From NCBI GenBank assembly GCA_964565945.1, contig CAZMGY010000021.1, forward strand, positions 44,300 to 108,299: a stretch of 64,000 nucleotides of DNA, read 5' to 3'. Origin of the DNA: an uncultured bacterium (lineage in GTDB: Bacteria; GCA-001730085). The translations under genes and the position numbers were made by a program. Shown piece after piece: positions 4,478 to 37,291 of the stretch (positions are counted from its first letter, which is position 1; the number at the start of each line of letters is the position of its first letter). Below the pieces are notes generated by a model, which had not been told where the DNA came from, searched no databases, and saw only the letters and a program-made list of their open reading frames with translations.

Positions 4478-5011
4478 TTAGATTTCGTTGATCTCCCGAT
4501 CACCGCGTATGGCCTCGCCCTCAGAGTTAAATTGCTTCACGACTTTATAGCCGTAAGCAATGCCGCCTCCAGATTTCCCTTTTTCAACGCGCCCGCGAAG
4601 CCCGCGCCGCGTTTTATCTGCAAGGTCTTTCAGGCACATAGCGTTCATCGTGCCTTTAAGGCCGATATGCAATGTTGAGATTTCACCTTCGGACAGAGTG
4701 ATGATTTTAACGCCAGCAAATTCCATGCGCTTATAGATACCGGCAATATCTTCCTGATCACGGGACAGGCGATCCAGCGCCTCGCAGATTAGAATATCAA
4801 ACTCACCGTTCATGGCAGCCGTTAGTAGCGATTGAATACCAGGGCGCATAAGTGATGCGCCTGATATTCCTGCATCGCTATAGCAGTTTCCTAAATCCCA
4901 GCCTTCGGCTTTGGCTTTTTCTGACGCGAGGCGGATTTGATCTTCAATCGAAGCATCGCTTTGAAGATCAGAGCTATATCTGGCATAGATGCAGGCGCGT
5001 AATTTTTTCAT
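4478..5011 (-). CDS. large serine recombinase, N-terminal resolvase/invertase catalytic domain (ends at in-frame TAA)
   Basis: 177 aa; 'CIYARYSSDLQ' catalytic-serine motif, then 'DILICEALDRLSRD' and 'KRMEFAGVKIITL', typical of the serine recombinase catalytic domain. Confidence 0.75.
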   Translation of the reverse strand: MKKLRACIYARYSSDLQSDASIEDQIRLASEKAKAEGWDLGNCYSDAGISGASLMRPGIQSLLTAAMNGEFDILICEALDRLSRDQEDIAGIYKRMEFAGVKIITLSEGEISTLHIGLKGTMNAMCLKDLADKTRRGLRGRVEKGKSGGGIAYGYKVVKQFNSEGEAIRGDREINEI

Positions 5012-5473: not shown

Positions 5474-7138
5474 TCATGCGTGCCCATTAAGGTATATGCG
5501 CACAGGCAAGTTTTTTGGATAATTATTTTTGTGATAAGGGCTTTTACCTGCTAATTTTCGCCATGGCTCTATCTGGAAGTAAGCTAATTTCTCAGCTCTA
5601 ATCAAAGCTTTTCCATCAATAGCGATAAGCTGGTGGCTCATATCCATGCGCCCGATCTCATCTATGCTCATCACGGATGCGGCGCGCTCGTTAATACTTA
5701 AACGCCATGGAGAAACCGGATTATTGGGATCACGGGTAAGAGAGCGGGCTTTCATGGTTTTATTACCAATGCGAGCGCTCCATGCTTTACGATCAAGTTC
5801 CCCGCGTATGCTCCAAGCCTGCATAAAGCTTGATTGCTCTTCGATCAGGCCTGCCATTTGCTGGCCATAAATCTCAATTGGTTGGCGGCGGCTTTGAAAC
5901 ACCATCCATAGGCGCACGCCCTTGCCAGGCAATAGTGATAGCGCTTTGGAAAGATTAGGTAGCTTGCCGATATTACCCATCTCTTCTAAAAGCATCATGA
6001 TTGGTGAAGGCTTTGGCGCGGCGGCAATGGTTTCTAGTAACAATGTAGCGATCAGGCCAAGGGCAGAGCCATGGGTTTCTAATTTTGCTTCTGGCAAAAT
6101 CACATAGAGCGTGGTTTTGCCATCCAGAATATCGGATAATTTAAAATCAGAGCTGCTCATTGCCGCGCCCATAGGTGAGTGCGCGTCATAAATCTCAAGA
6201 GCGTTCATGGCGTTATCTCTAAATGCGCCATAGGTCTTGATATATTCAGATCGCAACATCTCTGCTAAGCCATTGCCGTAATCTTGAAGTAATCCGTGCA
6301 GCCAATCGCTTGAGCGCATCTCAAAGGCAATGGCTTTTTGTTTATTGCTTCCAGCCCAGATAAGTTTGCGCAAAGTTGGCAGGGTGCATTGATCAGGCAT
6401 AAACACAGCCATATATAAAAGGAATGTAATGATTAGCCTGCGCCCACCATTACGGAAGAACATACCATCGCCCATATCATTAGGCCTTTCTGCAATGAGC
6501 TGGAAGGCAATAGAGCGCGCAAGATCATGCAAGTCCTTGCCTCCGTTCTTCATCACATCAACAACCAAGATGCGCAGTGGATTAAAATTCACGCCCTTAA
6601 TGCCAAGAACATTAAAGGGATTAAAGATCAAAACATTTTGACCTCGCGCTTTACGGTACTTGGCGGTGATAGCTGTTAGCTCGCCCTTAACATCGGTAAC
6701 AAACATCGAGCCTCCAAACCAGTGCAAAAGCGCAGGAATAATTACCGAGATTGTTTTACCGGTGCGTGAAGGCGCATAGGTCAGCATGTGACCATTGCCA
6801 GTTAGGTATGGATCGTAAAAGAGCGGGGCATCTGCCATGCTGCCAACATAAAAACCACTGCGGTTTTTAATTAGCTCTTTTATGAAGCTGTCTTGGATTT
6901 CGGCCAGTCTTGCATGACCATAGCTATCAGATAGCTTGCGACTTTCATGCAATAGATTGATCTGATGCGCGGTATGTAATGACAGGGAAAGAAACTCCAT
7001 TATCTTTTTGATAAAGATAAGCAGCGCCAAGCCCATCACTGCCACGCCCCAAACATAACCGCCATTCATAGCGGCCAGCCACAATCCTGCAAGAAGCAGG
7101 ATTAGTGGCATGAGCAGGAAAATGAGGGCGGTAAACAT
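5474..7138 (-). CDS. type IV secretion coupling protein (TraG/TraD/VirD4 family ATPase)
   Basis: 554 aa; two N-terminal TM helices; Walker A-like 'YAPSRTGKTISVIIPALL'; 'MMLLEEMGNIGKLP' matches the T4CP 'DEFxNLG' Walker B region. Confidence 0.75.
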   Translation of the reverse strand: MFTALIFLLMPLILLLAGLWLAAMNGGYVWGVAVMGLALLIFIKKIMEFLSLSLHTAHQINLLHESRKLSDSYGHARLAEIQDSFIKELIKNRSGFYVGSMADAPLFYDPYLTGNGHMLTYAPSRTGKTISVIIPALLHWFGGSMFVTDVKGELTAITAKYRKARGQNVLIFNPFNVLGIKGVNFNPLRILVVDVMKNGGKDLHDLARSIAFQLIAERPNDMGDGMFFRNGGRRLIITFLLYMAVFMPDQCTLPTLRKLIWAGSNKQKAIAFEMRSSDWLHGLLQDYGNGLAEMLRSEYIKTYGAFRDNAMNALEIYDAHSPMGAAMSSSDFKLSDILDGKTTLYVILPEAKLETHGSALGLIATLLLETIAAAPKPSPIMMLLEEMGNIGKLPNLSKALSLLPGKGVRLWMVFQSRRQPIEIYGQQMAGLIEEQSSFMQAWSIRGELDRKAWSARIGNKTMKARSLTRDPNNPVSPWRLSINERAASVMSIDEIGRMDMSHQLIAIDGKALIRAEKLAYFQIEPWRKLAGKSPYHKNNYPKNLPVRIYLNGHA

Positions 7139-14733: not shown

Positions 14734-15330
14734 TTGAAGCTCACTGATCTTGCAATTATATCCGCTGGACACCCATTCAGAGGGAAAATACTGGAAAAAT
14801 CCGGTAGCGGTATCCGTGCCGTGCAGATGAAAGACATCTCTATTGATCAGGGTGTTTGTTGGGAGAGCGTTATCGAAACGGAGCTTTCTGGCAAAAAAAA
14901 ACCTGCTTGGCTGATGAATGGGGATATCCTTTTCGCAGCCAGAGGCGCACGTAATTATGCCGTACTGGTAGATCATATTGTAGGGAAAGTCGTTAGTGCT
15001 CCTCATTTCTATATTCTCCGTGTGAACGAGCAATCGCTTTTGCCGGAATTTCTGGTCTGGCAGCTCAATCAAAAACCCCTGCAAAACTATTTCGACAGGG
15101 CAGCGCAAGGGTCGTTTACCAAGAGCATTAAACGCTCAATTTTAGAATGTGCTGAAATCACAGTACCGCCACTAGATAACCAAAAGCAAATCGTAGGCTT
15201 GCACATGACATTGATGCAAGAAAGAAAGCTCTATTCTGAATTGACCAGAAATGCGGATAAGTTAATGAATTCTATTGCCAGCAAACTTGCGGCAGGTAAA
15301 ACTCTACAGTTAAAAGGAATAAAAATATGA
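14734..15330 (+). CDS. hsdS: type I restriction-modification specificity subunit, single-TRD (half-size HsdS)
   Basis: 198 aa; one target-recognition-like region followed by an S-subunit-type conserved helix ('QKQIVGLHMTLMQERKLYSELTRNADKLMNSIA'); stop overlaps the hsdM start (ATGA). Confidence 0.55.
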   Translation: MKLTDLAIISAGHPFRGKILEKSGSGIRAVQMKDISIDQGVCWESVIETELSGKKKPAWLMNGDILFAARGARNYAVLVDHIVGKVVSAPHFYILRVNEQSLLPEFLVWQLNQKPLQNYFDRAAQGSFTKSIKRSILECAEITVPPLDNQKQIVGLHMTLMQERKLYSELTRNADKLMNSIASKLAAGKTLQLKGIKI

Positions 15331-16850
15331 ACACACCAATAAGCCAAGATGCTATCAACAAAGCCTTATGGGGGGCATGCGATACATTCCGTGGCACGGT
15401 CAGCGCTGACACATACAAAGACTTTATCCTAACCATGTTGTTCCTGAAATACATCTCTGATGTTTGGCAGGATCACTATGACAAATACAAAGAAGAGCAT
15501 GGTGACGAGCCAGAGCTTATTCATGAAATGATGAAGAATGAGCGCTTTGTTCTTCCCGATGGATCAAGCTTTTATACCCTTTATGAAAAACGCCATGAAC
15601 CCGGCAATGGTGAGCGTATCGACCAAGCTCTTCACGCATTGGAAGAGGCTAACGGCACTAAGCTTCGTGATGCATCAAAATCCGTGTTTCAGGATATCAG
15701 TTTTAACACTGATAAGCTCGGTGAAGAAAAACAAAAAAACACCATTCTTCGCCACTTGCTGGAAGATTTTGCCAAAGATGAATTAAACCTTCGCCCCAGT
15801 CGTGTTGGATCACTCGATGTGATCGGTAACGCCTACGAATATCTGATTAAGCACTTTGCCGCAGGTGGTGGGCAAAAAGCAGGAGAATTCTATACCCCGC
15901 CCGAAGTATCTGACCTGATTGCAGAATTGCTAGACCCACAAGAAGACGACACAATTTCTGATCCGGCTTGTGGTTCTGGTTCCTTGCTCATGAAATGTGG
16001 TCGTAAAATTAAAAAGCGTTTTAACAGCAAAAAATACGCACTCTACGGGCAAGAAGCTATTGGCTCTACTTGGTCTCTGGCGAAAATGAATATGTTCCTG
16101 CATGGCGAAGACAATCACAAAATAGAGTGGGGAGATACAATCAGAAACCCTAAGCTACTGAATAAGCATGGCGGCTTGATGCATTTTGATATTGTGACGG
16201 CTAATCCTCCATTCAGTCTCGATAAATGGGGGCATGATGAAGCTGATCATGATCCGTTTGGACGTTTTCGTCGTGGTATTCCTCCAAAGACCAAAGGTGA
16301 TTATGCCTTTATTTCGCATATGATCGAAACTATGGAGCCGACTACAGGGCGTATGGGCGTTGTTGTTCCGCATGGTGTTTTGTTTCGTGGTAGCTCAGAA
16401 GGAAAAATCCGCAAACAATTGATAGAAGAAAATTTGCTTGATACGGTGATAGGACTTCCTGAAAAGCTCTTTTACGGTACAGGGATACCGGCGGCGATTC
16501 TGATCTTTAAGAAAAATAAGGCGGATAGCAATGTCCTGTTCATTGATGCCAGCCGTGAATGTAAGACGGGTAAAAACCAAAACCTACTCACGCTTGATAA
16601 TATTAAAAAAATAGTCAAGACATATAAGGTGCGTAAAAGCTTTGATAAATATTCGTATTTGGCCAATTTTGAGGAGATTGAGGAAAACGACTTTAACCTT
16701 AATATCCCGCGTTATGTCGATACTTTTGAAGAGGAAGAAGAAATTGACCTATTGGCAGTGCGTAAAGAGCGTGAAGAACTAAAAACTCAACTCGTCGAAC
16801 TGGAAACGGAAATGGATGGTTATCTCAAGGAGCTGGGTTATGGTTCCTGA
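15327..16850 (+). CDS. hsdM: type I restriction-modification DNA methyltransferase subunit M
   Basis: 507 aa; 'YTPPEVSDLIAELL', 'DPACGSGSLL' (AdoMet motif I) and 'IVTANPPFS' (NPPF motif IV) of N6-adenine MTases. Confidence 0.92.
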   Translation: MNTPISQDAINKALWGACDTFRGTVSADTYKDFILTMLFLKYISDVWQDHYDKYKEEHGDEPELIHEMMKNERFVLPDGSSFYTLYEKRHEPGNGERIDQALHALEEANGTKLRDASKSVFQDISFNTDKLGEEKQKNTILRHLLEDFAKDELNLRPSRVGSLDVIGNAYEYLIKHFAAGGGQKAGEFYTPPEVSDLIAELLDPQEDDTISDPACGSGSLLMKCGRKIKKRFNSKKYALYGQEAIGSTWSLAKMNMFLHGEDNHKIEWGDTIRNPKLLNKHGGLMHFDIVTANPPFSLDKWGHDEADHDPFGRFRRGIPPKTKGDYAFISHMIETMEPTTGRMGVVVPHGVLFRGSSEGKIRKQLIEENLLDTVIGLPEKLFYGTGIPAAILIFKKNKADSNVLFIDASRECKTGKNQNLLTLDNIKKIVKTYKVRKSFDKYSYLANFEEIEENDFNLNIPRYVDTFEEEEEIDLLAVRKEREELKTQLVELETEMDGYLKELGYGS

Positions 16851-18075
16851 TGGGTGGAAAGAAGAAAATCTTGGAACTCTTTTTGAGTTTAAAAATGGCG
16901 CTAATACTGAGGCAGCCAATTACGGTTCTGGAATTAAGTTTGTTAATGTGATGGACGTGTTTGGTAATCACTTTATTACTAGCGAGAAAATTCGTGAAAG
17001 AGTTAATCTGCCTGAAAAAAAGATTAATTTATATTTGTTAAAAATGGGCGACGTATTATTTAATAGAACGTCAGAGGTTTTCGACGAAATTGCTCTAACT
17101 GCTGTTTATATGGATACTTCACCAGCAATATTTGGTGGCTTCGTTATTAGGGGGCGACCTAAGGCTAACGAACTTGACTTTAAATTTTGTATTTATTGTT
17201 TTTCATCTTATAGAGTCCGTAAGGAATCTATAAGAAGAGGGCAAGGGGTAATACGATCGAACATTGGTCAAAAAGACCTACAGTATGTTCCGTTGTTAGT
17301 TCCTCCTATTATAGAACAAAAGAAAATAGCCAAAATATTATTGACTTGGGATCGAGCGATTGAGGTAACAGAAAAACTAATCAGCAATAGTCAGCAACAA
17401 AAAAAGTCCCTCATGCAACAACTCATCACTGGCAAAAAACGCCTTCTGGGATTTAGTGATGAATGGGAAAAGATTCGATTAAAGCCTCTTTTAGAGGAGG
17501 GAAAGGCTAGAAATAAAGATAGTTCAATACAACGAGTATTAAGTGTTACTAATCATAGCGGTTTTGTATTACCAGAAGATCAATTTTCAAAACGTGTGGC
17601 GAGCAGTAATGTCAGTAACTATAAAATAGTTAAACGTGGAGAATTTGCATATAACCCATCTCGTATAAACGTTGGTTCATTTGCGCGTCTTGATGATTAT
17701 GATGAGGGTATTCTTAGCCCAATGTATGTTGTTTTCAGTGTTAAGAAAGATTCGCTATTTAGTGACTTTTTCTTTCAGTGGATGTCATCACATCACGCAA
17801 AACAACGTATTCTTTCAAGTACGCAGGGATCGGTAAGAGATTCAGTCAGTTTTCAAGCACTTTGTGCGTTCCCGTTTTTGCTTCCATCACTAAAAGAACA
17901 ACGAAAAATTGCGTCAGTTCTTTTATCTGCGGATAAAGAAATTGAAACTCTTCAACAAAAACTCGAATACCTCAGCCAAGAAAAAAAGGCGCTGATGCAA
18001 CAACTCCTCACTGGCAAACGCCGTGTGAAAATTGATGAAGATGGTATTTCTCAGAAGGAGGTTGTGCGTGCCTGA
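16840..18075 (+). CDS. hsdS: type I restriction-modification specificity subunit S (two TRDs)
   Basis: Two variable regions, each followed by a conserved repeat ('QKKSLMQQLITGKKRLLGF' and 'EKKALMQQLLTGKRRV'); start overlaps the hsdM 3' end. Confidence 0.85.
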   Translation: MVPDGWKEENLGTLFEFKNGANTEAANYGSGIKFVNVMDVFGNHFITSEKIRERVNLPEKKINLYLLKMGDVLFNRTSEVFDEIALTAVYMDTSPAIFGGFVIRGRPKANELDFKFCIYCFSSYRVRKESIRRGQGVIRSNIGQKDLQYVPLLVPPIIEQKKIAKILLTWDRAIEVTEKLISNSQQQKKSLMQQLITGKKRLLGFSDEWEKIRLKPLLEEGKARNKDSSIQRVLSVTNHSGFVLPEDQFSKRVASSNVSNYKIVKRGEFAYNPSRINVGSFARLDDYDEGILSPMYVVFSVKKDSLFSDFFFQWMSSHHAKQRILSSTQGSVRDSVSFQALCAFPFLLPSLKEQRKIASVLLSADKEIETLQQKLEYLSQEKKALMQQLLTGKRRVKIDEDGISQKEVVRA

Positions 18076-19144
18076 TATTATTTCATTTGAAGCCGCTATT
18101 GCGGAGTCAGAACAATATAAAAAACGTCATTTATTGCTAGGCAATGGTTTTAGTATTGGCTGTCGAGCTGACATATTTCATTATGAGTCTCTTTTTGGGG
18201 AAGCTGATTTTTCGGCAATTCCTGAGGCTAAACAGGTTTTTGAATCTTTACAGACACAGGATTTTGAAGTTGCAATTCGCGCACTTGAGAATGGTTCAAA
18301 AATTCTACCTATCTATGTGCCCAATGATGACGCAAGCGTTCAGGCAATGAGTAATCATGCTATTGCGCTTAAAGATTTGTTAGTTGCCACAATTGCTGGC
18401 AACCATCCTCCTAATCCTAATGCAATAGATGATCCAGAGTTTTGGGCTTGCCGACAGTTTTTAAGTTATTTCCTCGCTTCGGATAAGGGAGGACATGTCT
18501 TCACTCTAAACTATGACTTATTACTGTATTGGGCATTGATGCATGATGACAATCCATTTGATGAGGAAGTGGTGGAGCTGAACAAGAATGATGGGTTCGG
18601 AAATGATGAAGATGATCCAGAAGCGGATTATGTTCTCTGGCAAGGTGAGACCTCCGCGCATAGTGCAAATATACTTTTTCTGCACGGTGCACTTCATCTA
18701 TTTGACTCGGGTGCAGAGCTACAGAAATATACTTGGGTTCGTAAGGGTGAACCATTGGTGGATCAAGCGCGCACTGCAATAGCTGCGAATAAATTCCCTC
18801 TTTTTGTCGCGGAAGGAACAAGTACACAAAAGAAAAACAAAATTCGCCATAACGCATATCTTTACCAGTGTTTTAAGGTTCTGACAGCCAACGCACAGAC
18901 TGGCACGCACTGTTTTTTCATATTTGGACATTCGTTAGCTGATAGTGATGACCACATCCTAAAACGTCTTGGTAAAGGCCGTTTTAAGAAATTATATGTA
19001 GGTATTTTTGGTGATGCGGATACGCCAGAAAATAGGAATGTGATTGCACGCGCAAATGCTATCGCAGCACTTAGACATGATAGGTATCCTCTTGAGGTGG
19101 TGTTTTTCGATTCCTCATCCGCTAATGTTTGGGGGAATGATTAA
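18068..19144 (+). CDS. DUF4917 / SIR2-like domain protein embedded in the type I R-M operon
   Basis: Gly-rich 'LLLGNGFSIG', 'LFLHGALHLFD' and 'IFGHSLADSDDHIL' resemble the SIR2-like/DUF4917 arrangement (from memory, not searched). AGGAGG RBS and GTG at 18068; the track ORF starts at 18032. Overlaps hsdS and hsdR stops/starts. Confidence 0.6.
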   Translation: MPDIISFEAAIAESEQYKKRHLLLGNGFSIGCRADIFHYESLFGEADFSAIPEAKQVFESLQTQDFEVAIRALENGSKILPIYVPNDDASVQAMSNHAIALKDLLVATIAGNHPPNPNAIDDPEFWACRQFLSYFLASDKGGHVFTLNYDLLLYWALMHDDNPFDEEVVELNKNDGFGNDEDDPEADYVLWQGETSAHSANILFLHGALHLFDSGAELQKYTWVRKGEPLVDQARTAIAANKFPLFVAEGTSTQKKNKIRHNAYLYQCFKVLTANAQTGTHCFFIFGHSLADSDDHILKRLGKGRFKKLYVGIFGDADTPENRNVIARANAIAALRHDRYPLEVVFFDSSSANVWGND

Positions 19145-23165: not shown

Positions 23166-23283
23166 GGGTTTTCATTGATTACGCATTACTGGGAACTAAC
23201 GATTGCTTGATAAATGGCTATTCGCATAGTTTTTGTTAAAAATTGAGTGCTAACCAATAGCGGACATAAGCAAAGGAGATATC

Positions 23284-26200
23284 TTGGGGAAAAAAGAAGC
23301 AAGGCGCACTAAGTCAAAGTCAACACCGCGTCAAACAGGTGGGGCAGGATACGACTTCGAAGATTTGATTGCAGCCTGGATGATGGTGAAGATGCTGCGT
23401 GAGATTAGGTTGCCAGGTGTTGAGGAGTTTGGTACAGCGATTCAATGGCAAGCGGAAGTGTTAGGTTGGGAACAGATCGATGACCTTCTGGTTACATGTG
23501 TGGTTGAAGAAGAAAAGAAAAAGCAGCTAGCCATCTCTTGTAAAAGCAACATGCAAGTTAGTGGGTCTGGGCTTCCATTTGATTTTCTCAAAAATGCTTG
23601 GTCACTATGGATAAAAGGCGAGCCTTTTAATAAGGAAAATGATTGCATGATGTTGGTTCAGAAAGGCAGCAATCAAAATTTTTTTACTGCTTGGGCAGAC
23701 CTAAAATATTGGTGTTCTGAGGGCGATGTAGAAACGGCTCTAGCACGAATTACAGCTTCTCAGAAACATAGTAAAATATACAATGGCGTTAAGGCTCCTG
23801 ATAAAAGCAGTAATTATACAAACGAAGATACTATTGCGCTTATACGCAGTTTAGAAGTTATTCCTGCAGATTTTCATTTAGCTAGTTCGGAATACGAAGA
23901 CACTTCATTATCCCATTGTCGTGATCTTTTGCAGGATGGCTCTGAAGAGACTGCAAAAAAGCTATGGGACTGGCTTCTCAAGAAAGCTAAAGTCAAACGT
24001 ATCTCAGGTGGAACATTACAGCTATCAGAGTTGTGGCAAGAATTGGTTCCAGCATTTGATTTAAAAGACCATCCAAACTTTCTTTCATCATGGAAGTCTC
24101 TTAAAGCTATATCCGAAGAATATAAGAGATCAATCGAAATTGAATTGCCTAATGGTCATAGTGTCATAAGGCCTGCCGAAGAAGACCTGATAGAGCATCT
24201 TAGAGATGGTCCAATATGTATTGTATATGGTAGCTCTGGAAGGGGTAAATCGGCGGTTGTTAAATCTACTTTAGATAAGAAGCTATCTGATTGGAATCAG
24301 GTTTGGTTTTCTCCGGAAAACCTAGACTTAGCTTCAAGTGAAAGGACTCGCTCAGAAGTGGGATTGCTTAGACCTTTGCAGGATGTACTTGCTCACTCAT
24401 CGGAAGAAAAAAATGTCCTAATTATAGATTCTGCTGAGAGGATTAACCCCGATAGCAGAAAAATTGTAAAGTCGCTTATTTCCAACCTATTGATACACAA
24501 TGGCGAACAGAAGAGTCGTTTGAACTGGCGAGTTATCATTGTTGGGCAAACCGAGGCTTGGGCATCTGGCAATTTTCATGAAATTTCAGGACTCTCTTCT
24601 ATTCAGCCTATAGAAATTTCTTCCCTTGACCCTTCGGATGTCAGAGCAGCTTTGCATTCAAGCAATCACTTATCTTGGCTTGCTTCGGATAACGAAGCGC
24701 TTATAGCCTTAGGTAACTTGAAAACTTTGGCTTGGGTAATGCGAGCTGGAACCATTTTTCCAAAAGGGGGAATGAATAGCATATCGTTGCCTGCAATCGC
24801 TGATCGTTTATGGTCGTATTGGACAAAAGATAAAATAAAACTTCAGAATCTTCTGATGCAACTTGCTGAACGTGAAGCTCAATTTGAACGTAGCTTTCCT
24901 ATCAGTGGGTTTGGTATTGATGTAAGCCAAGCTCTTGATGAAGGTTTGGAATGCTTGCCACTACGAAAAAGAAAAGAGACTAATTCAATCGAGTTTGAGC
25001 ATGACCTGGGTGCTGATTGGGCAAGGTTTCAGCGTTTAAAAGAAATAAAAAATGACATAAGCTCTTGGGCACCATTTGCTAGCAACCCTCTCTGGCATAA
25101 TGCTTTGCGCATGATGGGGCAACTCCTATTACGAGAAAAAACTGAACAAGGAACACTATGGGATGTTGTTTATGATGAAGCAGAAAAAACAAAAGTTGAA
25201 AATCCTTTAGCAGCAGATATTCTCTTAGATTCTTTGTGCCTTGATCCATTTGCTGCGCATTATCTTAATGAGCGGTCGGATATACTTTTTGCAGATAACG
25301 GGGCTCGTTTAAACCGCTTATTAAAACGTTTTCATCATATAGCGACCGTTTCAAATGTCTCTAGCGAGTCCTTGGACATTGATCCCTCGCTAAAATTGTA
25401 TTTAGAAGACATGCAAAGGTTGCCAATCTATGGTCGTTGGCCACAAATTGCACAATTTCTTTCAGATCACAAAGAACAAGTTTCCAGCCTAATCTCACCA
25501 ACTATTTCAAAACTATGTGAGACTTGGCTTACAACAACACCTCTCTATCTTGATCCTGAGGCAAATACGCCGATGCCCTATAGAAAGGTATTTGCAGAGC
25601 TTGCTTTAAGCACGGTAAGGACTTTACAACTTGAGCAAAAGAAAGGGCACTTGTGGCTCACAGATGACAGCGAAAAGCCTCTTTATGGGGCAGCATTTGC
25701 GGCTGTAAACGATCTTCCTGACGAAGTCTGCGAATGGGCTTTAGAAATGGCCTGTAGAAGACCTTGCAAAAAAGAAATACCTGAAGCGCTTGCAGCCTAT
25801 CGAGAAGAAAGAAGAAAAGAACATAGAGAAAAATTGCGCACTGATAAGGCTTATCCTGAAAGGCACGAGCGTTTACGTTCAATGCCTTCCGGTATTTCAA
25901 GCCATAGAGATTTACCTCCATGGCCATTAGGGCCACAAGGTAGTGTAGATAATACTTTTCGAGATTATTGCTTGAACTCAAACTCCATGGCTAGGCTGAT
26001 GTATCTAAGGCCAGAAGTTGCAAGCGAGTGCCTTCTTGCAATGCTAATAGATTATTCGCGTAGCCCTCTCCGAGATGATTTAGGTCTAGTGTATAGTCAC
26101 ACAGGATACCCTACGGCATATTGGAAAAGTCCATTTTTCCAGTTTTTACAGTTGAATAGCACTATAGCCATGGATTCCCTTATTTCGCTCGTTAATTTTT

Positions 26201-28536
26201 GTACAGATCGATGGGCAGATGATTTTGAGAGCGATTATAGTCTAGAGGTAAGTCTACGAGATGGTCAAAAACAAAGTTTGAAAGGAAACGGACATGTTTT
26301 CTCCTGGTCTCAAGAAAGCTCCACATCTAACGGACAGCTCTACTGTGCGTTAGCAGCACTAGAAAAATGGATTTATATTGAAATTGATAAGGACGCAGAT
26401 GTAGAGCCTGCGCTCAAGAGACTTATCGAAAACTCAAATTCTGTTGCAATAATAGGCGTGCTCCTAAATGTCGGTAAATACAAACCAAGCTTATTTACAA
26501 GCGCATTACAACCTTTTTTAGGGGTATATGAATTCTATCAAGCCGATGACAACCGCCTTCTAGATGCCGGGCATTGGTATGATGCTGGGGCATGGCCGTG
26601 TGAGGGTGAAAAAATATTTGAAATGGCCAAAGAGTGGCACTTTGCTCCGCACCGGAAAATTCCGTTGCGGCAATTAGCTGTTCAACTTGCTCTCAGTGAT
26701 AAAGAGACAGCCTCTTTTATTAAGGAAGCTTCTGAAAGTTGGGAAACACATTCAGTCGAGGAAAAATATGATTTAGAGGTAAGGATATTAAAAGCTGAAC
26801 TTGATCCTGAAAATTATAAGCCAGAAAAAGACCAACAATCTGGGCAGACATTATTGAGGTGTTATTACCCAGACAAGCTACAGAAGGACATAGAAGATTT
26901 TCAGAAAAGAAAAAGTCCGAGATGGCATGCTGTTACTATACCTATTCAATGTGAAGAATTATTGGCTTCGTCTCATAACATTACTGATGAAGAGGCTGAG
27001 AGATTAGCTTCTGCACTCAATGTTGTTCCTATAGAAGAAGATGAAGAGAGCATCCTCGCGACAGAAGCGGCGATCGCAGCTACGTTGTTAATAAAGGCAC
27101 CTAGCTGGCTAGACAAAAACCCTGATCTTAAAAAGAAAACAAATGAAATTATTCAAAATATAATTTCTAGTATTGGAGACACCTTAGAATCTTTGAGAGC
27201 TACCGGACATCTTATGAGTGATAGGTCGCTTGCCTTTGCCACTCATGTTGTTGTTGAAGAATTTATAAACAACCCGTCCCATGATAGGGACGTAGATGCT
27301 TCTGTATTAAGAATTTTAACCAGTGGTGACAACCAGGCTGTCTTCATTTTGATGAATGCGGCTTATCAAAATAGAGATAAGCTAGGTGATCGCTGGTGGC
27401 GTCTCATACAAATATCAATCTTTTGTGCTGGACTTAATAGCCTTAGTCCGGGCTTTAGAGAAGATGAAGATAAATCGATTGAATTACGTTGGGCGCGTTG
27501 GTTGATATGGTTGCGCACCCGTGATTTAAACGTTTCAGTAAATGCAGAAGCTATTGACCCAATCGGATTAGCGGTTCGTGTGGATCGTTTAAAAATGGCT
27601 CGTATTAAACGGCTATTTGGAAAAGATACAGACGGACGTTTGCGTTACTATCATCGAGGGTTTTTTGGCCTTGAGACCTACACGTTGGATAAAATGTTTT
27701 CATGGATGCTGAGTGATCATGGGCAAGGGGCTGACAATAGTTCGGATGTGCGTCTCTTAACTCAAAAACTTTGGGTGTTCGAAGCTTGGAGAAAGCAAAA
27801 AAGCGAAGAAGCCAACGATGAAGATAATGACCGTGATAGCCTTCCAAGCGATTTAGGTTACTCGCTTCTTCAAAAGCTATCAAAGCTTATGCTGACTGCA
27901 CAAAAAGATGAAGCGTCTAAGATTTGGAAGCCGATACTTTCTATGGGCGTAGATGGTCATCATTCTATTGAGCATTTCATTGATGGGTGGCTGCTAGGAG
28001 TGGTTCAAACCAAAAATACAAACTCCCTTTCTCAGTTTTGGAGAGAATTAATTGAGTTTGCGCTCTTATCTCCCAACTGGTCTCCCAATAAATATTGGTA
28101 TAAAGGAGAAGAGTTATTTCGACATCTTTTAGGATTTGGCTTGATTAATCTTGCGGAGTTTGAAGGTGCTCAAAACATTATTTTCGAAATAAAGGATCTG
28201 TATAAACGTTGGGCTGATACACACCTTTCTCAGGAAGAGGAAAATATAGCAGGCTTTGCATATTTTCTTTCCTCTAAAGTGGGGGCACCTATTCGGTATG
28301 ATGGTCTGCTGTGGATCAGAGACTCCTTGCGACCTCCCAATCCTGCATATTGGCGTCGAATGGAAACCGGACGCTCTCTTGTTGATCTTTTGGATGTTAT
28401 CATTACCGAAGAAACTAAACAAATATCTTCAGATTCTGAGTTTCGCGATGCGTTATTGAGGGTTGCAGCACATTTGGCTGATAGGCAAGTTCCTATTGCA
28501 TTATTGTTGCAAGAGAAGATTCGCCAGGTGCATTAG
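23284..28536 (+). CDS. very large (1750 aa) P-loop NTPase of unknown function; candidate defense protein
   Basis: Single uninterrupted ORF, AAGGAG RBS and apparent TTG start; Walker A 'YGSSGRGKSAVVKS' near residue ~320 and Walker B-like 'VLIIDSAERI' ~60 aa later; long helical C-terminus; no family recognised by eye. Confidence 0.8.
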   Translation: MGKKEARRTKSKSTPRQTGGAGYDFEDLIAAWMMVKMLREIRLPGVEEFGTAIQWQAEVLGWEQIDDLLVTCVVEEEKKKQLAISCKSNMQVSGSGLPFDFLKNAWSLWIKGEPFNKENDCMMLVQKGSNQNFFTAWADLKYWCSEGDVETALARITASQKHSKIYNGVKAPDKSSNYTNEDTIALIRSLEVIPADFHLASSEYEDTSLSHCRDLLQDGSEETAKKLWDWLLKKAKVKRISGGTLQLSELWQELVPAFDLKDHPNFLSSWKSLKAISEEYKRSIEIELPNGHSVIRPAEEDLIEHLRDGPICIVYGSSGRGKSAVVKSTLDKKLSDWNQVWFSPENLDLASSERTRSEVGLLRPLQDVLAHSSEEKNVLIIDSAERINPDSRKIVKSLISNLLIHNGEQKSRLNWRVIIVGQTEAWASGNFHEISGLSSIQPIEISSLDPSDVRAALHSSNHLSWLASDNEALIALGNLKTLAWVMRAGTIFPKGGMNSISLPAIADRLWSYWTKDKIKLQNLLMQLAEREAQFERSFPISGFGIDVSQALDEGLECLPLRKRKETNSIEFEHDLGADWARFQRLKEIKNDISSWAPFASNPLWHNALRMMGQLLLREKTEQGTLWDVVYDEAEKTKVENPLAADILLDSLCLDPFAAHYLNERSDILFADNGARLNRLLKRFHHIATVSNVSSESLDIDPSLKLYLEDMQRLPIYGRWPQIAQFLSDHKEQVSSLISPTISKLCETWLTTTPLYLDPEANTPMPYRKVFAELALSTVRTLQLEQKKGHLWLTDDSEKPLYGAAFAAVNDLPDEVCEWALEMACRRPCKKEIPEALAAYREERRKEHREKLRTDKAYPERHERLRSMPSGISSHRDLPPWPLGPQGSVDNTFRDYCLNSNSMARLMYLRPEVASECLLAMLIDYSRSPLRDDLGLVYSHTGYPTAYWKSPFFQFLQLNSTIAMDSLISLVNFCTDRWADDFESDYSLEVSLRDGQKQSLKGNGHVFSWSQESSTSNGQLYCALAALEKWIYIEIDKDADVEPALKRLIENSNSVAIIGVLLNVGKYKPSLFTSALQPFLGVYEFYQADDNRLLDAGHWYDAGAWPCEGEKIFEMAKEWHFAPHRKIPLRQLAVQLALSDKETASFIKEASESWETHSVEEKYDLEVRILKAELDPENYKPEKDQQSGQTLLRCYYPDKLQKDIEDFQKRKSPRWHAVTIPIQCEELLASSHNITDEEAERLASALNVVPIEEDEESILATEAAIAATLLIKAPSWLDKNPDLKKKTNEIIQNIISSIGDTLESLRATGHLMSDRSLAFATHVVVEEFINNPSHDRDVDASVLRILTSGDNQAVFILMNAAYQNRDKLGDRWWRLIQISIFCAGLNSLSPGFREDEDKSIELRWARWLIWLRTRDLNVSVNAEAIDPIGLAVRVDRLKMARIKRLFGKDTDGRLRYYHRGFFGLETYTLDKMFSWMLSDHGQGADNSSDVRLLTQKLWVFEAWRKQKSEEANDEDNDRDSLPSDLGYSLLQKLSKLMLTAQKDEASKIWKPILSMGVDGHHSIEHFIDGWLLGVVQTKNTNSLSQFWRELIEFALLSPNWSPNKYWYKGEELFRHLLGFGLINLAEFEGAQNIIFEIKDLYKRWADTHLSQEEENIAGFAYFLSSKVGAPIRYDGLLWIRDSLRPPNPAYWRRMETGRSLVDLLDVIITEETKQISSDSEFRDALLRVAAHLADRQVPIALLLQEKIRQVH

Positions 28537-29558: not shown

Positions 29559-30071
29559 ATGAGTGCAGAAATTAGAATTTATGTGGCATGTTTGGCAGCG
29601 TATAACGGCGGTAGATTGCATGGCGTTTGGATTGACGCAACCGATGAGCTGGACGATATTCAAGAGCAAGTAAATATGATGCTAAAAGAAAGCCCAGAGC
29701 CAGACGCAGAAGAATGGGCGATACATGATTACGAGGGTTTTGGTGGTTATAGCGTTAGCGAATATTCAGGGTTTGAAGAGCTTCACGATGTTGCGTCTTT
29801 TATTGAAGAATATCCAGAAATTGGTGGGGAGCTTTTAGATCATTGCTCAGACCTTGAAGAAGCCAGGAAAGCCATAGAAGAAAGCTATGCAGGATGCCAT
29901 AAATCACTTGCAGATTTTGCCGAGGAAACAACCGAGGAAACAACCGAAATTCCTGAGCATTTACGGTATTACATTGATTATGAAAAAATGGGGCGTGATA
30001 TGGAAATGAGCGGAGACGTTTACACAATTGAAACAGGTTATGAGGAAGTGCATATATTTTGGAATCATTAA
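29559..30071 (+). CDS. ardA: antirestriction protein ArdA
   Basis: 170 aa, acidic; 'IYVACLAAYNGGRLHGVWIDATD', 'EEWAIHDYEGFGG' and 'LRYYIDYEKMGRDMEMSGDVYTIE' parallel the conserved ArdA blocks (e.g. Tn916 ArdA). Confidence 0.85.
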   Translation: MSAEIRIYVACLAAYNGGRLHGVWIDATDELDDIQEQVNMMLKESPEPDAEEWAIHDYEGFGGYSVSEYSGFEELHDVASFIEEYPEIGGELLDHCSDLEEARKAIEESYAGCHKSLADFAEETTEETTEIPEHLRYYIDYEKMGRDMEMSGDVYTIETGYEEVHIFWNH

Positions 30072-31625: not shown

Positions 31626-32351
31626 ATGAGTATTGCACAAGCCATTGAAAATTCGGTTAAATCCATGCCTTCTGGCCAGATTTTTGGCTATCAGGAGTTG
31701 CCTAGCTACGCTAAATCACCAGGGGCTGTGATTAAGGCGATTAGCCGTCTGGTGGCTGATAAGAGGTTGGAACGGTTTTCTAAGGGCAAGTTTTACGTAC
31801 CCAAAAAAGGCATGTTAGGTGCTAGAAAACCCTCAGATAGTGAGTTGATCCGTTCAATGTTGTACAAGGACGGGCGTTTGCGTGGTTATGTGACTGGCCT
31901 ATCTCTCTATAATCAACTGGGTCTTACAACGCAGGTGCCGCGCACAATTACGGTTGCCTATAACGGTGGTCGTCAGAAAAAAGAATATGGAACAATTCGT
32001 ATTAAGACGGTCGTTACACGTGTTCCGATTAAGGAAAAGGACGTTAAGCTTCTTCAATATTTGGACGCGCTTAAAGACATAAAAAAAATTCTAGATTCTG
32101 ATGTAAATCTTTCTCTTAAGATTATTCGCGGCTATATATCTAAGTTATCTGATCGTGAGCGTAGTCGTTTGGTGGAACTGGCGCTAAATTACTATAACCC
32201 TCAAGTCAGAGCATTGGTTGGCTTATTGTTCACAGATTTAAAACTCTCGGTTCCAAGCTCTTTGGCTCACTCACTTAACCCAACAACGACCTATAAGCTT
32301 AAGCTGGATCGCTCAATGTGGCCAATGGCCAAAGAATGGAATATCCAATAA
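31626..32351 (+). CDS. AbiEi-like antitoxin / regulator (partner of the AbiEii nucleotidyltransferase)
   Basis: 241-aa gene with GGAG RBS; stop overlaps the AbiEii start (TAATG). Assignment is mainly by operon partner; the sequence may equally be a DUF6088-type partner. Confidence 0.5.
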   Translation: MSIAQAIENSVKSMPSGQIFGYQELPSYAKSPGAVIKAISRLVADKRLERFSKGKFYVPKKGMLGARKPSDSELIRSMLYKDGRLRGYVTGLSLYNQLGLTTQVPRTITVAYNGGRQKKEYGTIRIKTVVTRVPIKEKDVKLLQYLDALKDIKKILDSDVNLSLKIIRGYISKLSDRERSRLVELALNYYNPQVRALVGLLFTDLKLSVPSSLAHSLNPTTTYKLKLDRSMWPMAKEWNIQ

Positions 32352-33151
32352 TGAATTTACATGAGGATGATGAAGCATTTGCAGAATTAGTCGCTGTAAC
32401 CGCTGAAACAATAGGCTTGCCGCAGGTCTATGTTGAAAAAGATTATTGGGTTACAAAAGCGCTTAAGAATTTATCAGAATCCAAGCATGTAGGTGAAGTG
32501 GTCTTTAAGGGTGGTACATCTTTATCCAAGGCCTATAGGTTAATTGATCGTTTTTCAGAAGATATTGATTTGGCTGTACTTGCAGGCGGCAAAGGTGATT
32601 CTGCACGTAAGAAACTACTTAAGAGCGTAGAGACTACTGCCAGCGAAGGCCTGATATGTGTGAAAGATGATGCACGGGAATCCAAAGGCTCAAAATTTCG
32701 TAAAACAGTTTATCAATATCCGCGAAGTATAGAAGGTGGTGACTTTGGGCAAGCATCTCCTGAATTATTGATCGAGGTTAATACATTTACCAATCCTGAG
32801 CCTTTTGAAACGCGGGAGCTGCAAACATTTATTGCCGAAGTTCTTACTGAAAAAGGCGAAACAGATTTAATAGCACAATATGTGCTTGAAGGTTTTCCTG
32901 TAAATGTATTGTCGGTCAGGCGTACCCTTGTTGAGAAAATGCTTGGTGTAATTAAAGATAGTTATCATGAAGACCCCGTTGCAAGGATGTCTGTTCGAAT
33001 TCGACACATATATGATGTTTGTCTGATATTAAAGAATGATGAATATCGCGACTTTATTGCTAGCGATGAATTTATGTCGCTATGTAATATTTGTATTGAG
33101 GATGAAAAGGCAGGGTTTTTGCCCCCTCTGATTGTTTCGATACACCATTAG
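32351..33151 (+). CDS. nucleotidyltransferase AbiEii/AbiGii toxin family protein (DUF1814), apparently frameshifted near the 3' end
   Basis: 'VVFKGGTSLSKAYRLIDRFSEDIDL' is the DUF1814/AbiEii hallmark; a second frame (33106-33303) continues protein-like after a T5C5 tract. Confidence 0.7.
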   Translation: MNLHEDDEAFAELVAVTAETIGLPQVYVEKDYWVTKALKNLSESKHVGEVVFKGGTSLSKAYRLIDRFSEDIDLAVLAGGKGDSARKKLLKSVETTASEGLICVKDDARESKGSKFRKTVYQYPRSIEGGDFGQASPELLIEVNTFTNPEPFETRELQTFIAEVLTEKGETDLIAQYVLEGFPVNVLSVRRTLVEKMLGVIKDSYHEDPVARMSVRIRHIYDVCLILKNDEYRDFIASDEFMSLCNICIEDEKAGFLPPLIVSIHH

Positions 33152-34272: not shown

Positions 34273-34962
34273 TTAGAGAATAAACCTCACCGTGTATATA
34301 TCTATAGCTACAAAGCCGCGCTTATCTCCTTTGGCCAGCCAGTAGCCAGATTCCAGGAGCGCTTGCTCAAAGCTTTTCTTATCATCCGACCTTGCCCAGC
34401 ATTGCTGTAAGTTGGCCTTGATGGTCTTGGGGTTTTGATTTGTGCGCGCCGCTTGCTGCCACTCAGCCCTTGTGAAGTTGAGCGGGTTTTTCTGGCTCTT
34501 ATCAATAAAGCCTTTGGGCAGTTGCCAACCATGATCTAAATAAAGCTGTTTTGATATATCTTTGAGCTTATTTTTAAAAAAGGGCTGATCAATTGCCTTC
34601 ATTTCTTTGGCATCAATGCGGCTCCAAACACAATGCGCATGACGGCGGCCATGTTTTTCATGAAAGACAATGACGCGGGGCTGATTTTCAAGCCCCAGCT
34701 TTTTCTCTATTTTTGTTAGTGCATCCTCAAATGCAGCTACCAGCACTTTTTCATTTTGTGGTGGTGATAGCGATAGGGAGAACATGAAACGTGAACATCT
34801 TGTACCTTTGCTAATCGCATGGATTTCATTAAGTGCGCCGCCTATTGTTTCACTGGCAAAACCCGATACTTCATGCACCCGCACATGCTCATTTTGCTCA
34901 CCATTCATGAGGTGCTTTGCCATTTGGCGTGCGCCGCCGCGTTTACTCGCCTTGATGATCAT
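34273..34962 (-). CDS. mobilization relaxase N-terminal nuclease domain (MobA/MobL-like)
   Basis: Start 'MIIKASKRGGARQMAKHLMNGEQ...' and three-His motif 'VIVFHEKHGRRHAHCVWSRID' typical of MOB relaxases. Confidence 0.65.
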   Translation of the reverse strand: MIIKASKRGGARQMAKHLMNGEQNEHVRVHEVSGFASETIGGALNEIHAISKGTRCSRFMFSLSLSPPQNEKVLVAAFEDALTKIEKKLGLENQPRVIVFHEKHGRRHAHCVWSRIDAKEMKAIDQPFFKNKLKDISKQLYLDHGWQLPKGFIDKSQKNPLNFTRAEWQQAARTNQNPKTIKANLQQCWARSDDKKSFEQALLESGYWLAKGDKRGFVAIDIYTVRFIL

Positions 34963-35353
34963 CTTCTTTTTCCTGCAAACCCAGAGCGCGGGTGAGGGTA
35001 TTTCTAATCCAGTGAACCGAGCGGCTGGCCTCATTTAAGGCCTTTAGCACATCTATATTCACAGGCAGGGAACCTGAATTTGCAGCCCTAGCAAGCTGAT
35101 TGATATTGTTAGCTATACGAGATTGCCCAAAGGCAGCTAGCAGTCTGGCTAATTCTTTTTGGTCTTTGACGGGCTTCTTGCCCCGTGTTCTATTTTTGGG
35201 GATTTCATCACCAAAGAGAAGAAAGCGAATATAGGCAGATAGCGGGCGATCACCTGCGGCCAGCTCTAATGTCTTTCTTTCATCCTCAGTGAAGCGAATA
35301 CAATATGGGGAGGGGTATGTATATTTTTGATCCGTAGGGGTTTTTTTAGACAT
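34943..35353 (-). CDS. mobC: mobilization protein MobC-like
   Basis: 'LARLLAAFGQSRIANNINQLARAANSG' resembles the MobC signature; sits immediately upstream of, and overlaps, the relaxase gene. Confidence 0.55.
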   Translation of the reverse strand: MSKKTPTDQKYTYPSPYCIRFTEDERKTLELAAGDRPLSAYIRFLLFGDEIPKNRTRGKKPVKDQKELARLLAAFGQSRIANNINQLARAANSGSLPVNIDVLKALNEASRSVHWIRNTLTRALGLQEKEDDHQGE

Positions 35354-35783
35354 TTTTCTGTCCCCCTGTTGCCGGAAGGGCAGAGTTACTGGTAGAATAC
35401 GCATCCTTTGAAGAGCGGACTCCCTCTATTGCAGATAGTAGCGCCTCTTCTTGTAGCGGATCAGCAGCAATATCATAGCAGTTACCAGCGGTAGATAGCG
35501 TTGGCAACCAGCCCCCGCTACCAAATATAATCTATACCACAGTAGCCTTTAAGCTTATTGTGGTTTTTTTGTTTATGCTCAAATTCGGTTTGGGCTAACA
35601 CTGTGCTAACAAAATATTTTTACTCTTCTTTATTGTTATCTCACCCACTCTTTAATTTTTAACCTTTTTGTAACTTCAATTTATTAAATTCCTTATTACA
35701 AAAAAACTTTTAAATAAAAAGTCCCCCTGAGTAGATATGATATAATCACTTAAATTATGCACTGTTATAAGGATTAAACTTTA

Positions 35784-36038: not shown

Positions 36039-36119
36039 AAATCTCGGCTAACACCATGCTAACAAAACACCCCAAACCATCAAAAAGCAACATCAACCAA
36101 GACAAAAATAAAAAGCCCC

Positions 36120-36161
36120 TAACCCAAAGGCCGAGGGTTCGAATCCCTCCCCCCGCTACCA
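36120..36161 (+). repeat. attR-like direct repeat of the tRNA-Met 3' end
   Basis: TAACCCAAAGGCCGAGGGTTCGAATCCCTCCCCCCGCTACCA matches tRNA positions 3323-3363 with one substitution and one extra C. Confidence 0.8.
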
Positions 36162-36187
36162 AAAATTCATTTTTAAAGGAGACAGCT

Positions 36188-37291
36188 ATGTGGAATCGTC
36201 ATAATCAGGATGGTTTAGCTCGCACTGGTTCACTTCATTTATCTCATGGTGATGTGCCCACTCCAGCCTTTATGCCTGTAGGGACACAAGCTAGCGTCAA
36301 AACAGTTACCCCCGATGAGCTTAAAGCCATCGGGTATCAGCTTATTTTAGGCAATACGTATCATTTGAATTTGCGCCCAGGAATAGCCCTAATTCAAGAG
36401 TTCGGTGGGTTACACCGTTTTATGAATTGGGACCGAGGAATATTGACCGACAGCGGGGGCTTTCAGGTGTTTAGTTTGGCGCCTTTACGCAAAATCACCT
36501 CTGAAGGGGTAATTTTTCAGTCGCATATCGATGGCTCGACTCACCTTTTAACTCCAGAAAACGTGATTGATAAACAGCTCGCGATGGGAGTGGATATTGC
36601 TATGGTTTTGGATGAATGTCCACCTTTTCCTGCGGAGCGCTCTTATGTAGAAACATCGATGCAGGTCACCCTCGATTGGGCCAAACGCAGCCGGACTTAT
36701 CATCCTAAGGGAAGCTCTGGACCTAAACTTTTTGGCATTGTGCAAGGAGGCATGCATGCCGATTTACGTAAGCAATGTGTGGAGCAACTAATCGATTTGG
36801 ATTTTGAGGGCTATGCAATGGGGGGGCTTAGCGTTGGGGAAAATAAAGCGCTTATGTATGAGATGTTTAGTTTAGTGGCGGATATCCTTCCCCAAGATTC
36901 TCCTCGCTATCTGATGGGTATTGGAACACCCGAAGACCTTCTTGAAGGAGTGGCTTGTGGTGTTGACATGTTTGATTGTGTTTTGCCGTCACGCAATGCG
37001 CGCAATGGGACTCTTTTCACGTGGCAAGGTAAGGTAATAATTAAAAATCAGCGTTGGGAAAAAGTGCAAGATCCGATTGACCCAACATGTACTTGTTACA
37101 CGTGCAAAAATTTCAGTGCGGGTTATTTGCGTCATTTATTTCGCTCTAGAGAAATCTTATCGTTGCGCTTGAATACCTTGCATAATTTGCACTTTTTTTA
37201 TCAACTCATGCATCAAGCGAGACAAGCGATTAGCGAACAAAGGTTTGGGCTATTTAAGGAAAAGTGTTTGGAGGCCTGGTCCCAAACTTAA
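36188..37291 (+). CDS. tgt: queuine tRNA-ribosyltransferase
   Basis: 'GGFQVFSL', 'MGIGTPEDLLEGVACGVDMFDCVLPSRNARNG' and zinc site 'CTCYTCKNFSAGYLRHL'; AGGAG RBS upstream of ATG at 36188 (track ORF starts earlier at 36056, across the att repeat). Confidence 0.9.
   Translation: MWNRHNQDGLARTGSLHLSHGDVPTPAFMPVGTQASVKTVTPDELKAIGYQLILGNTYHLNLRPGIALIQEFGGLHRFMNWDRGILTDSGGFQVFSLAPLRKITSEGVIFQSHIDGSTHLLTPENVIDKQLAMGVDIAMVLDECPPFPAERSYVETSMQVTLDWAKRSRTYHPKGSSGPKLFGIVQGGMHADLRKQCVEQLIDLDFEGYAMGGLSVGENKALMYEMFSLVADILPQDSPRYLMGIGTPEDLLEGVACGVDMFDCVLPSRNARNGTLFTWQGKVIIKNQRWEKVQDPIDPTCTCYTCKNFSAGYLRHLFRSREILSLRLNTLHNLHFFYQLMHQARQAISEQRFGLFKEKCLEAWSQT

Follow-up and report, generated by a model that had tools for sequence, protein, structure and literature searches.

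A 1750-residue STAND protein on a tRNA-Met island is probably an Avs phage sensor from an unnamed sister lineage of Avs4

We analysed a 64,000-nt stretch of DNA (the window; positions 44,300-108,299 of the forward strand of contig CAZMGY010000021.1), and all coordinates below are positions in that window. Our subject is a gene for a protein of 1750 residues, which we call the window protein. We think it probable that the product of this gene is a single-polypeptide Avs phage sensor and that its lineage is an unnamed sister of Avs4. The gene and its parts are listed below. In the list, EcAvs4 is the AVAST type 4 protein of E. coli, whose structure (8DGF) was obtained with the portal of PhiV-1 bound, and P0107 is a more distant homologue of 1684 residues.

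23284..28536, + strand: complete gene for a 1750-aa Avs4-like STAND protein, with a TTG start and a TAG stop
23272..23279, + strand: Shine-Dalgarno sequence AAAGGAGA, read directly from the DNA, 4 nt (TATC) ahead of the TTG
23284..24153, + strand: predicted Cap4-type PD-(D/E)xK nuclease effector domain, aa 1-290
23338..23364, + strand: helix-1 motif GGAGYDFED, aa 19-27, with E26 and D27 as candidate metal ligands
23479..23484, + strand: D66-D67, the putative 'D' of PD-(D/E)xK, just ahead of strand 2 (from the structural model, conservation, and alignment with the DD of P0107)
23536..23544, + strand: S85-C-K87, which closes strand 3 and is the putative '(D/E/Q)xK' half-motif, here with Ser for Gln/Glu (aligned with IQVK of P0107)
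24169..25083, + strand: predicted STAND P-loop NTPase with a helical/winged-helix extension, aa ~296-600 (from sub-threshold Pfam matches and profile alignment to EcAvs4)
24229..24252, + strand: Walker A, GSSGRGKS, aa 316-323, aligned with GEGGVGKT of EcAvs4
24415..24438, + strand: Walker B, VLIIDSAE, aa 378-385, aligned with VIVVDSAE of EcAvs4
25084..28533, + strand: predicted Avs4-type helical sensor, aa 601-1750 (from the structural model, Foldseek, and the family profile)

The gene is clearly real rather than a chance reading frame, because it has about 100 full-length homologues and a separate search found 1237 cluster representatives. Of the 113 relatives that our first homologue search found, about 100 are full length (~1700-1830 aa). 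The initial annotation of this locus had described a single uninterrupted open reading frame with a good ribosome-binding site, and we find the same: 1750 codons and a TAG, with a strong Shine-Dalgarno sequence. Also, for a protein that is about 99% identical and is encoded on a Logan contig (P0001), an independent gene call begins at the same residue. P0001 differs from the window protein by the loss of five residues in the sensor (VDRLKMARIKRL becomes VDRIKRL) and by a few substitutions, which is micro-variation of the sensor among very close strains. With a G+C content of 41.2%, the gene matches the window as a whole (41.5%). Upstream, a reading frame on the same strand (a YgjP-like/WLM/SprT-like zinc peptidase) stops at 23165, which confirms that the gene lies 118 bp after the operon of restriction-modification and peptidase genes. 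This peptidase gene closes a type I restriction-modification cluster that consists of an hsdS fragment, hsdM, hsdS, a DUF4917 gene, and hsdR. A scan of the 118-bp gap and the ends of the gene for consensus promoters and terminators found nothing convincing in the gap, and the counts were near the expectation from shuffled sequence.

The first 290 residues are predicted to form a nuclease domain. The initial annotation had picked out three motifs by eye, and each lies where it was placed: Walker A at residues 316-323, Walker B at 378-385, and IDDLLVTCVVEEEKKKQLAISCK at residues 65-87. The last of these, the N-terminal IDDLL...SCK stretch, had been suggested to be a PD-(D/E)xK core, and both the predicted structure and matches to Cap4-type effectors agree. 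The model of residues 1-295 is confident (pLDDT, the predicted local distance difference test, is 87.9), and it places a helix at 23-38, strands at 49-55, 68-74, and 78-87, a helix at 99-111, and a strand at 121-127. As modelled, this is the order of elements of the PD-(D/E)xK core (alpha-beta-beta-beta-alpha-beta), and the IDDLL...SCK stretch maps to strands 2 and 3. The core matches Cap4-type nuclease effectors, and the core together with its helical subdomain superposes on Cap4 and on the N-terminus of SeAvs3. When a profile of the N-terminal domain was compared to the sequences in the PDB, HamA of the Hachiman system was the only match, and a weak one (E = 0.18), through the helix GFLFQDCVAAY; the window protein and HamA have the helix-1 motif GFxF(E/Q)D..AA in common.

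The putative active site is well conserved. We built a family profile from 51 homologues that are 22-78% identical, and among these, D67 and S85 are invariant and D66 and K87 are at least 90% conserved. E26 and D27 are invariant in an alignment of 18 sequences and near-invariant in the wider clade, in which E26, D27, Q56, D66, and D120 are at least 94% conserved where they align. Judging from about 190 aligned proteins, E26, D27, Q56, D66, D67, S85, K87, and D120 appear to be under strict purifying selection. We propose that the catalytic centre comprises D66/D67 and K87, with E26 and D27 as candidate metal ligands and with S85 in place of the Gln of the relatives. The change from Gln to Ser would remove no acidic ligand, because Gln is likewise not a carboxylate. 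PD-XXK-E variants that take a carboxylate from elsewhere, such as Cfr10I and NgoMIV, are active (PMC551604). We infer that the nuclease of the window protein is active as well.

The middle of the protein appears to be a STAND P-loop NTPase. Searching the whole protein against Pfam gave sub-threshold matches to P-loop families only (AAA_16, nSTAND1, and AAA_22), all within residues ~300-425. G316, G319, G321, K322, S323, and D382 are invariant among the 51 homologues, and E385 is at least 90% conserved. What had been described as a compact NTPase core with Walker A and Walker B motifs is a P-loop of the STAND type.

In the predicted structure, the C-terminal 1150 residues have the fold of the Avs4 sensor, because 8DGF is the only specific match from Foldseek. 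The AlphaFold model of residues 600-1750 has a pLDDT of 85.3 and a predicted template modelling score (pTM) of 0.72. It is mainly alpha-helical with a few beta-hairpins, much as the initial annotation expected for the last ~1200 residues. Comparing this model to the PDB with Foldseek identified chains A and B of 8DGF, which is EcAvs4 (E = 7e-19, query-normalised template modelling [TM] score of 0.58, ~1260 columns). The next matches, CAND1 and karyopherins, have E ~ 1e-4 and TM scores of 0.15-0.23, and we take these to reflect the generic similarity among solenoids. The sensor is about 13% identical to that of EcAvs4.

Profile comparisons link the whole protein to Avs4. The first indication came from PADLOC and NCBIfam, whose models for Avs4 match the window protein with E = 2.9e-16 and E = 1.6e-20, respectively. 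A search of the PDB with the window protein as a single sequence found no match. The best match for the family profile is EcAvs4 (8DGF; E = 7e-23), and the remaining matches are generic P-loops. Three stretches of the profile are collinear with EcAvs4: 276-579 with 188-475 (the NTPase), 924-1226 with 761-1088, and 1506-1740 with 1351-1576. A closer link is provided by P0107, which was among the weakest matches of our first search (E = 3e-20) and which aligns to positions 151-1570 of the 1570 positions of PADLOC's model for Avs4 (516 bits). BLASTP of the window protein against P0107 gives one alignment, of 12-1093 with 4-1050, at 21% identity (E = 1e-34). Similarly, hhalign aligns the profile of the N-terminal domain to residues 1-288 of P0107 over 272 columns with 99.4% probability (E = 5.8e-21). 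The paired motifs, with the window protein's given first, are GGAGYDFED and GGGGTNFEQ, IDDLL and TDDLL, and AIS-C-K and LIQ-V-K. Because the alignments to P0107 include the N-terminal domain, each of the three modules has its homologue in P0107, an Avs4 whose nuclease is Cap4-like.

The initial annotation had likened the effector-NTPase-sensor layout to STAND or Avs proteins, and the domain models, the profile, and the fold matches all agree with that. It had also stated that the protein could not be placed in any named family. This is not so: according to the profile, Foldseek, and the alignments to P0107, it is a distant relative of Avs4.

Our protein is one of many. Using phmmer, we queried 1.84 billion cluster representatives (clusters at 50% identity) exhaustively with residues 600-1750, the sensor, and this identified 1237 proteins with E <= 1e-3, 864 with E <= 1e-10, and 494 with E <= 1e-30. 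If the strictest of these thresholds is used to delimit the clade, it appears to have at least 494 representatives. Nearly all of the full-length matches have ~1700-1830 residues, with the sensor beginning near residue 600. A hidden Markov model of the N-terminal domain matched 200 of the 209 proteins of at least 1400 residues that we fetched. At the catalytic positions, the 192 N-termini that could be aligned have D/SxK (181 proteins), D/SxR (4), D/NxK (1), or D/QxK (6), and the six proteins with D/QxK are the distant Avs4-like proteins P0107-P0113. Nine further rows without the catalytic positions are from proteins that are truncated at the N-terminus. As aligned, the effector seems to be fixed in this clade, with D...SxK as its defining pattern and D...QxK in its relatives. 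There are Avs families that swap effectors, unlike this clade. The clade occurs in Proteobacteria, Acidobacteria, and other phyla.

These proteins have escaped naming. All of the homologues that we checked are called "hypothetical protein" or "ATP-binding protein" at NCBI, and P0107's own clade likewise has no name there. Neither the term "Avs4" nor WP_139238625, WP_182575736, WP_198364146, KVZ49458, PKN35391, or RLW65771 is present in two supplements of a 2026 survey of STAND proteins, which says little. We also note two kinds of variants. P0022 and P0027 (1826 and 1838 aa) are about 80 residues longer and match an XRE-type helix-turn-helix (PF01381), which is presumably an N-terminal extension that precedes the nuclease domain. 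P0108, P0109, and P0112 (~1790-1810 aa) retain the QVK motif and fit PADLOC's "DUF626_VIII" and "PDC-M54A" better than Avs4, which suggests a wider superfamily of Avs4-like proteins with several unnamed branches.

The gene was proposed to be a single-protein system, and its genomic contexts support this. We surveyed six homologue loci, without statistics. No neighbouring gene is shared among the six loci, and none of them has hsd genes within 10 kb of the homologue or a restriction-modification system next to it. Three of the six adjoin genes for defence, toxin-antitoxin systems, or mobile elements. For example, P0007 is encoded in an integrative element, with Shedu (SduA_C) directly upstream, a helix-turn-helix/HipA pair further upstream, and genes for ParA, SSB, RadC, a TraG-like protein, and an integrase. 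In Mesorhizobium sp. YR577 (L003, 1-18224), the homologue P0044 is preceded by genes for a 1841-aa protein and a 1509-aa nSTAND1 NTPase, and downstream are a PRTase-CE/winged-helix gene, a reverse transcriptase, and an integrase. With several large STAND genes one after another, the locus has the look of a dense defence island. P0038 is near a HigB/helix-turn-helix pair. Judging by its variable neighbours across these loci, the gene behaves as a mobile stand-alone unit. The initial annotation had pointed out the adjacency to the restriction-modification operon. We consider it to be incidental, because the linkage to hsd genes is not kept in the homologues.

In the window, the gene is cargo of an island that is integrated at a tRNA gene. 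The other features of this island are:

3287-3363: tRNA-Met gene, whose 3' segment (3318-3369) is repeated
3320-4198 and 4478-5011, - strand: serine recombinase, apparently split in two reading frames, beside tRNA-Met, with the Resolvase N-terminal domain in one and Zn_ribbon_recom in the other
5474-7138, - strand: TraG-like type IV coupling protein
14734-15330, + strand: hsdS-like fragment of 198 aa with a single target-recognition domain, just upstream of hsdM
16816-18075: full hsdS
18032-19144, + strand: DUF4917 gene between hsdS and hsdR, a full-length match to PADLOC's PDC-S21 "phage defence candidate" (397 bits)
29559-30071, + strand: ArdA anti-restriction gene, downstream of the Avs4-like gene
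31626-33151, + strand: AbiEi/AbiEii toxin-antitoxin pair, downstream of the Avs4-like gene
34273-35404, - strand: MobA/VirD2-type relaxase and MobC
35497-35529: weaker partial copy of the tRNA-Met repeat
36115-36166: repeat of the 3' end of tRNA-Met, 92% identical over 39 nt

The repeats bound an integrated island of about 32.8 kb that carries the Avs4-like gene. Besides that gene, the island contains the serine-recombinase fragments, the TraG-like coupling protein, a DUF6538/integrase-SAM-like protein, an AlpA-like helix-turn-helix protein, the restriction-modification cluster, ArdA, a SEC-C protein, AbiEi/AbiEii, and the relaxase with MobC. The locus had been described as a mobile island with defence and anti-defence genes, and the tRNA-Met repeats, the mobility genes, and the genes for restriction-modification, PDC-S21, AbiE, and ArdA bear this out. 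Because ArdA shares the island with the type I system, the island bears both restriction and anti-restriction functions. We saw no complete mating-pair apparatus, and the gene content points to an element that is integrative and mobilisable but not self-transmissible. The recombinase might have suffered a frameshift or be a pseudogene, and if so, the island has possibly been immobilised.

Several details of the island deserve mention. The DUF4917 gene may be, from its match to PDC-S21, an extra defence gene inside the restriction-modification operon. The full hsdS has an internal direct repeat of 42 nt (17395-17436 and 17977-18018; 88% identity), which presumably corresponds to the conserved central and C-terminal repeats of hsdS. 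This arrangement of an hsdS fragment and a repeat might be a remnant of specificity shuffling or a substrate for it. Finally, the tgt reading frame as listed (411 aa, 36056-37291) overlaps the island's repeat. The true start of tgt probably lies downstream, because the TGT domain begins only at residue 53.

How does the window protein compare to characterized systems? Like EcAvs4, it has an N-terminal nuclease, a STAND NTPase whose Walker motifs align, and a helical sensor of about 1100 residues with common motifs and a common fold. The first ~187 residues of EcAvs4, which is its N-terminal effector region, have no match in our family profile, and the window protein has a Cap4-type effector of about 290 residues in their place. 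Gao et al. are said to have described the EcAvs4 effector as Mrr-like in 2022. P0107 and about 375 relatives, which are Avs4s of a Bacteroidota type with a Cap4-like nuclease, share three collinear homologous modules with the window protein, and P0107 is of similar length (1684 versus 1750 aa). Nevertheless, P0107 is just 21% identical, has QVK where the window protein has S-x-K, and groups with EcAvs4, which the window clade does not. SeAvs3 (8DGC) and SeAvs7 share the logic of effector, NTPase, and sensor, and the tetramerisation of their Cap4 domains activates DNA cleavage, but their NTPases are from other clades and their sensors are unrelated (Avs3 senses terminase, and Avs7 has a TPR sensor for a capsid protein with EF-Tu). 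In contrast, what activates Cap4 of CBASS, HamA, and LmuA of Lamassu is a cyclic nucleotide or a partner helicase or SMC-like protein, and not a fused STAND sensor. The contrast between S-x-K and Q-x-K that we draw is with the closest Avs4-like relatives that could be aligned, and not with Cap4, HamA, or LmuA.

These comparisons suggest how the window protein might work. In SeAvs7 and SeAvs3, binding of the target lifts autoinhibition, ATP binding leads to a tetramer of the NTPase, and the Cap4 domains cleave DNA (bioRxiv 10.64898/2026.01.04.697583). Avs3 and Avs4 cleave DNA non-specifically, as endonucleases, when phage activates them (PMC11564622). By analogy, in an uninfected cell, the window protein would be monomeric, autoinhibited, and bound to ADP. 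During infection, a conserved phage protein would bind inside the C-terminal sensor, and the portal is the default candidate as EcAvs4 senses it. Binding of ATP by K322 of Walker A and D382 of Walker B would drive oligomerisation, probably to a tetramer, and would juxtapose the N-terminal nuclease domains. The assembled nuclease would degrade double-stranded DNA indiscriminately, so that infection is aborted and the cell is lost. The gene would act alone, with the tRNA-Met integrative mobilisable island as its carrier. We believe that this scheme, from sensor binding through ATP-dependent oligomerisation and nuclease activation to abortive infection, is likely to be correct. That the trigger is specifically the portal is, to our minds, close to an even call but no better than that, because the sensor is 13-21% identical to those of the Avs4s that we compared, Avs specificities drift, and an unrelated family senses the portal.

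A number of observations weigh against our interpretation. The match to PADLOC's Avs4 model (E = 2.9e-16, 56 bits) covers only positions 757-976 of 1570, and the match to the NCBIfam model for Avs4 (NF041815; E = 1.6e-20) has 72 bits, versus a cut-off of 1500 bits. Both matches are confined to residues ~932-1208 of the window protein and are far below the thresholds for the family. For matched segments, the window protein scores 34-37 bits against EcAvs4 and 44-53 bits against P0107, and EcAvs4 scores 84-103 bits against P0107 and its relatives. In the N-terminal domains of 18 family members, Pfam found no nuclease family at E <= 10, and the half-motif is SxK instead of (E/Q)xK. Three of the homologues, P0069 (from Polaromonas), P0010, and P0008, are solitary insertions amid housekeeping genes with no defence genes nearby. 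The proposed oligomeric state and autoinhibition are inferred from the relatives SeAvs3, EcAvs4, and SeAvs7. And transferring the specificity for portals from EcAvs4 is weak, because the window protein is outside the cluster of EcAvs4 and P0107 and its sensor is about 13% identical.

Given the bit scores, is the protein an Avs4? If membership is defined strictly, then it is excluded by the curated models of NCBIfam and PADLOC and by the cluster of EcAvs4 and P0107; the three-module architecture, the Walker A and B motifs, and both the sequence and the fold of the sensor are those of Avs4. On this evidence, which is pairwise scores with no rooted tree behind them, the clade would be sister to the canonical Avs4s rather than nested within them.

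The alternative that we take most seriously is that the architecture and the nuclease output are as we propose but that the sensor recognises a phage or plasmid protein other than the portal, which would make this a separate Avs family and not a subtype of Avs4. This overlaps with the reading as a sister lineage of Avs4, with the trigger as the sole difference, and it is a real possibility, although we would bet against it. The sensor's low identity to EcAvs4 (about 13%) and to P0107 (about 21%) and the placement of the clade beside the canonical Avs4s are both in its favour. Also, the specificity of Avs proteins drifts (KpAvs2 recognises several different phage proteins; PMC11564622), and the unrelated Avs11 also senses the portal, so trigger and sensor fold do not correspond one to one. 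On the other hand, the sensor fold is kept along its whole length (TM 0.58), and Avs sensors typically read the fold of their target across phages despite little sequence identity, which favours conservation of the class of target. Another alternative concerns the other end of the protein: the SxK domain might be catalytically dead and might act as a scaffold or decoy, through the consumption of ATP, or by recruiting a separate effector. Throughout the clade, Ser stands where Cap4-type nucleases have Glu or Gln, and the domain does not match any nuclease family in Pfam. Nevertheless, we think that a dead nuclease is improbable. D66, D67, K87, E26, D27, Q56, and D120 are essentially invariant down to 22% identity, as would be expected of an active site; the Gln of the nearest relatives is not a carboxylate either, so no acidic ligand was lost; active PD-XXK-E variants have been documented (Cfr10I and NgoMIV; PMC551604); and there is no conserved partner gene that could supply another effector.

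We consider both of the remaining alternatives to be very improbable. The gene could be an accessory of the adjacent type I restriction-modification/YgjP operon, co-transcribed with it and working with HsdR, HsdM, and HsdS, as its strand, the distance of 118 bp, and the gap without a convincing consensus terminator or promoter might suggest. But this gene is served by a strong ribosome-binding site of its own, those Avs proteins that have been characterised work singly, and none of the six homologue loci has an adjacent restriction-modification system. We reject this explanation because the linkage is not conserved. Or the protein could be a STAND NTPase with a role outside of defence, such as signal transduction or regulation. 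In the STAND superfamily, clades with and without roles in defence are interspersed; several of the homologues lie amid housekeeping genes; and a few (P0022 and P0027) bear the N-terminal XRE helix-turn-helix. However, the defence systems Avs3, Avs7, CBASS Cap4, Hachiman, and Lamassu all use this effector fold, the sensor is folded like that of Avs4, and the distribution is patchy and tied to islands and mobile elements.

We prefer the reading of the window protein as a sister of Avs4, and there is a further, somewhat doubtful idea about what this clade is for. It might be a distinct Avs family of common ancestry with Avs4, with hundreds of clusters at 50% identity and a D...SxK nuclease. Its sensor may have diverged to recognise another conserved protein of phages or plasmids, or the portals that canonical Avs4 misses, and the Ser at the active site may alter regulation or substrate. 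The clade also presents a natural change from Q to S in the Cap4-type active site that can be studied.

We do not claim that this is a new kind of immunity: the descriptions of Avs3, Avs4, and Avs7 already include this architecture and the mechanism that is likely here. The value of this clade is for annotation and for the discovery of triggers. Because the Avs4 models of PADLOC and NCBIfam miss the clade, censuses of defence systems under-count it. More broadly, NLR immune receptors have their bacterial counterparts in the Avs proteins, each family of which reveals one phage protein that serves bacteria as a signature of infection. For this clade, the placement beside Avs4 leads to testable predictions of both the trigger, with the portal as the first candidate, and the output, which would be the cleavage of DNA.

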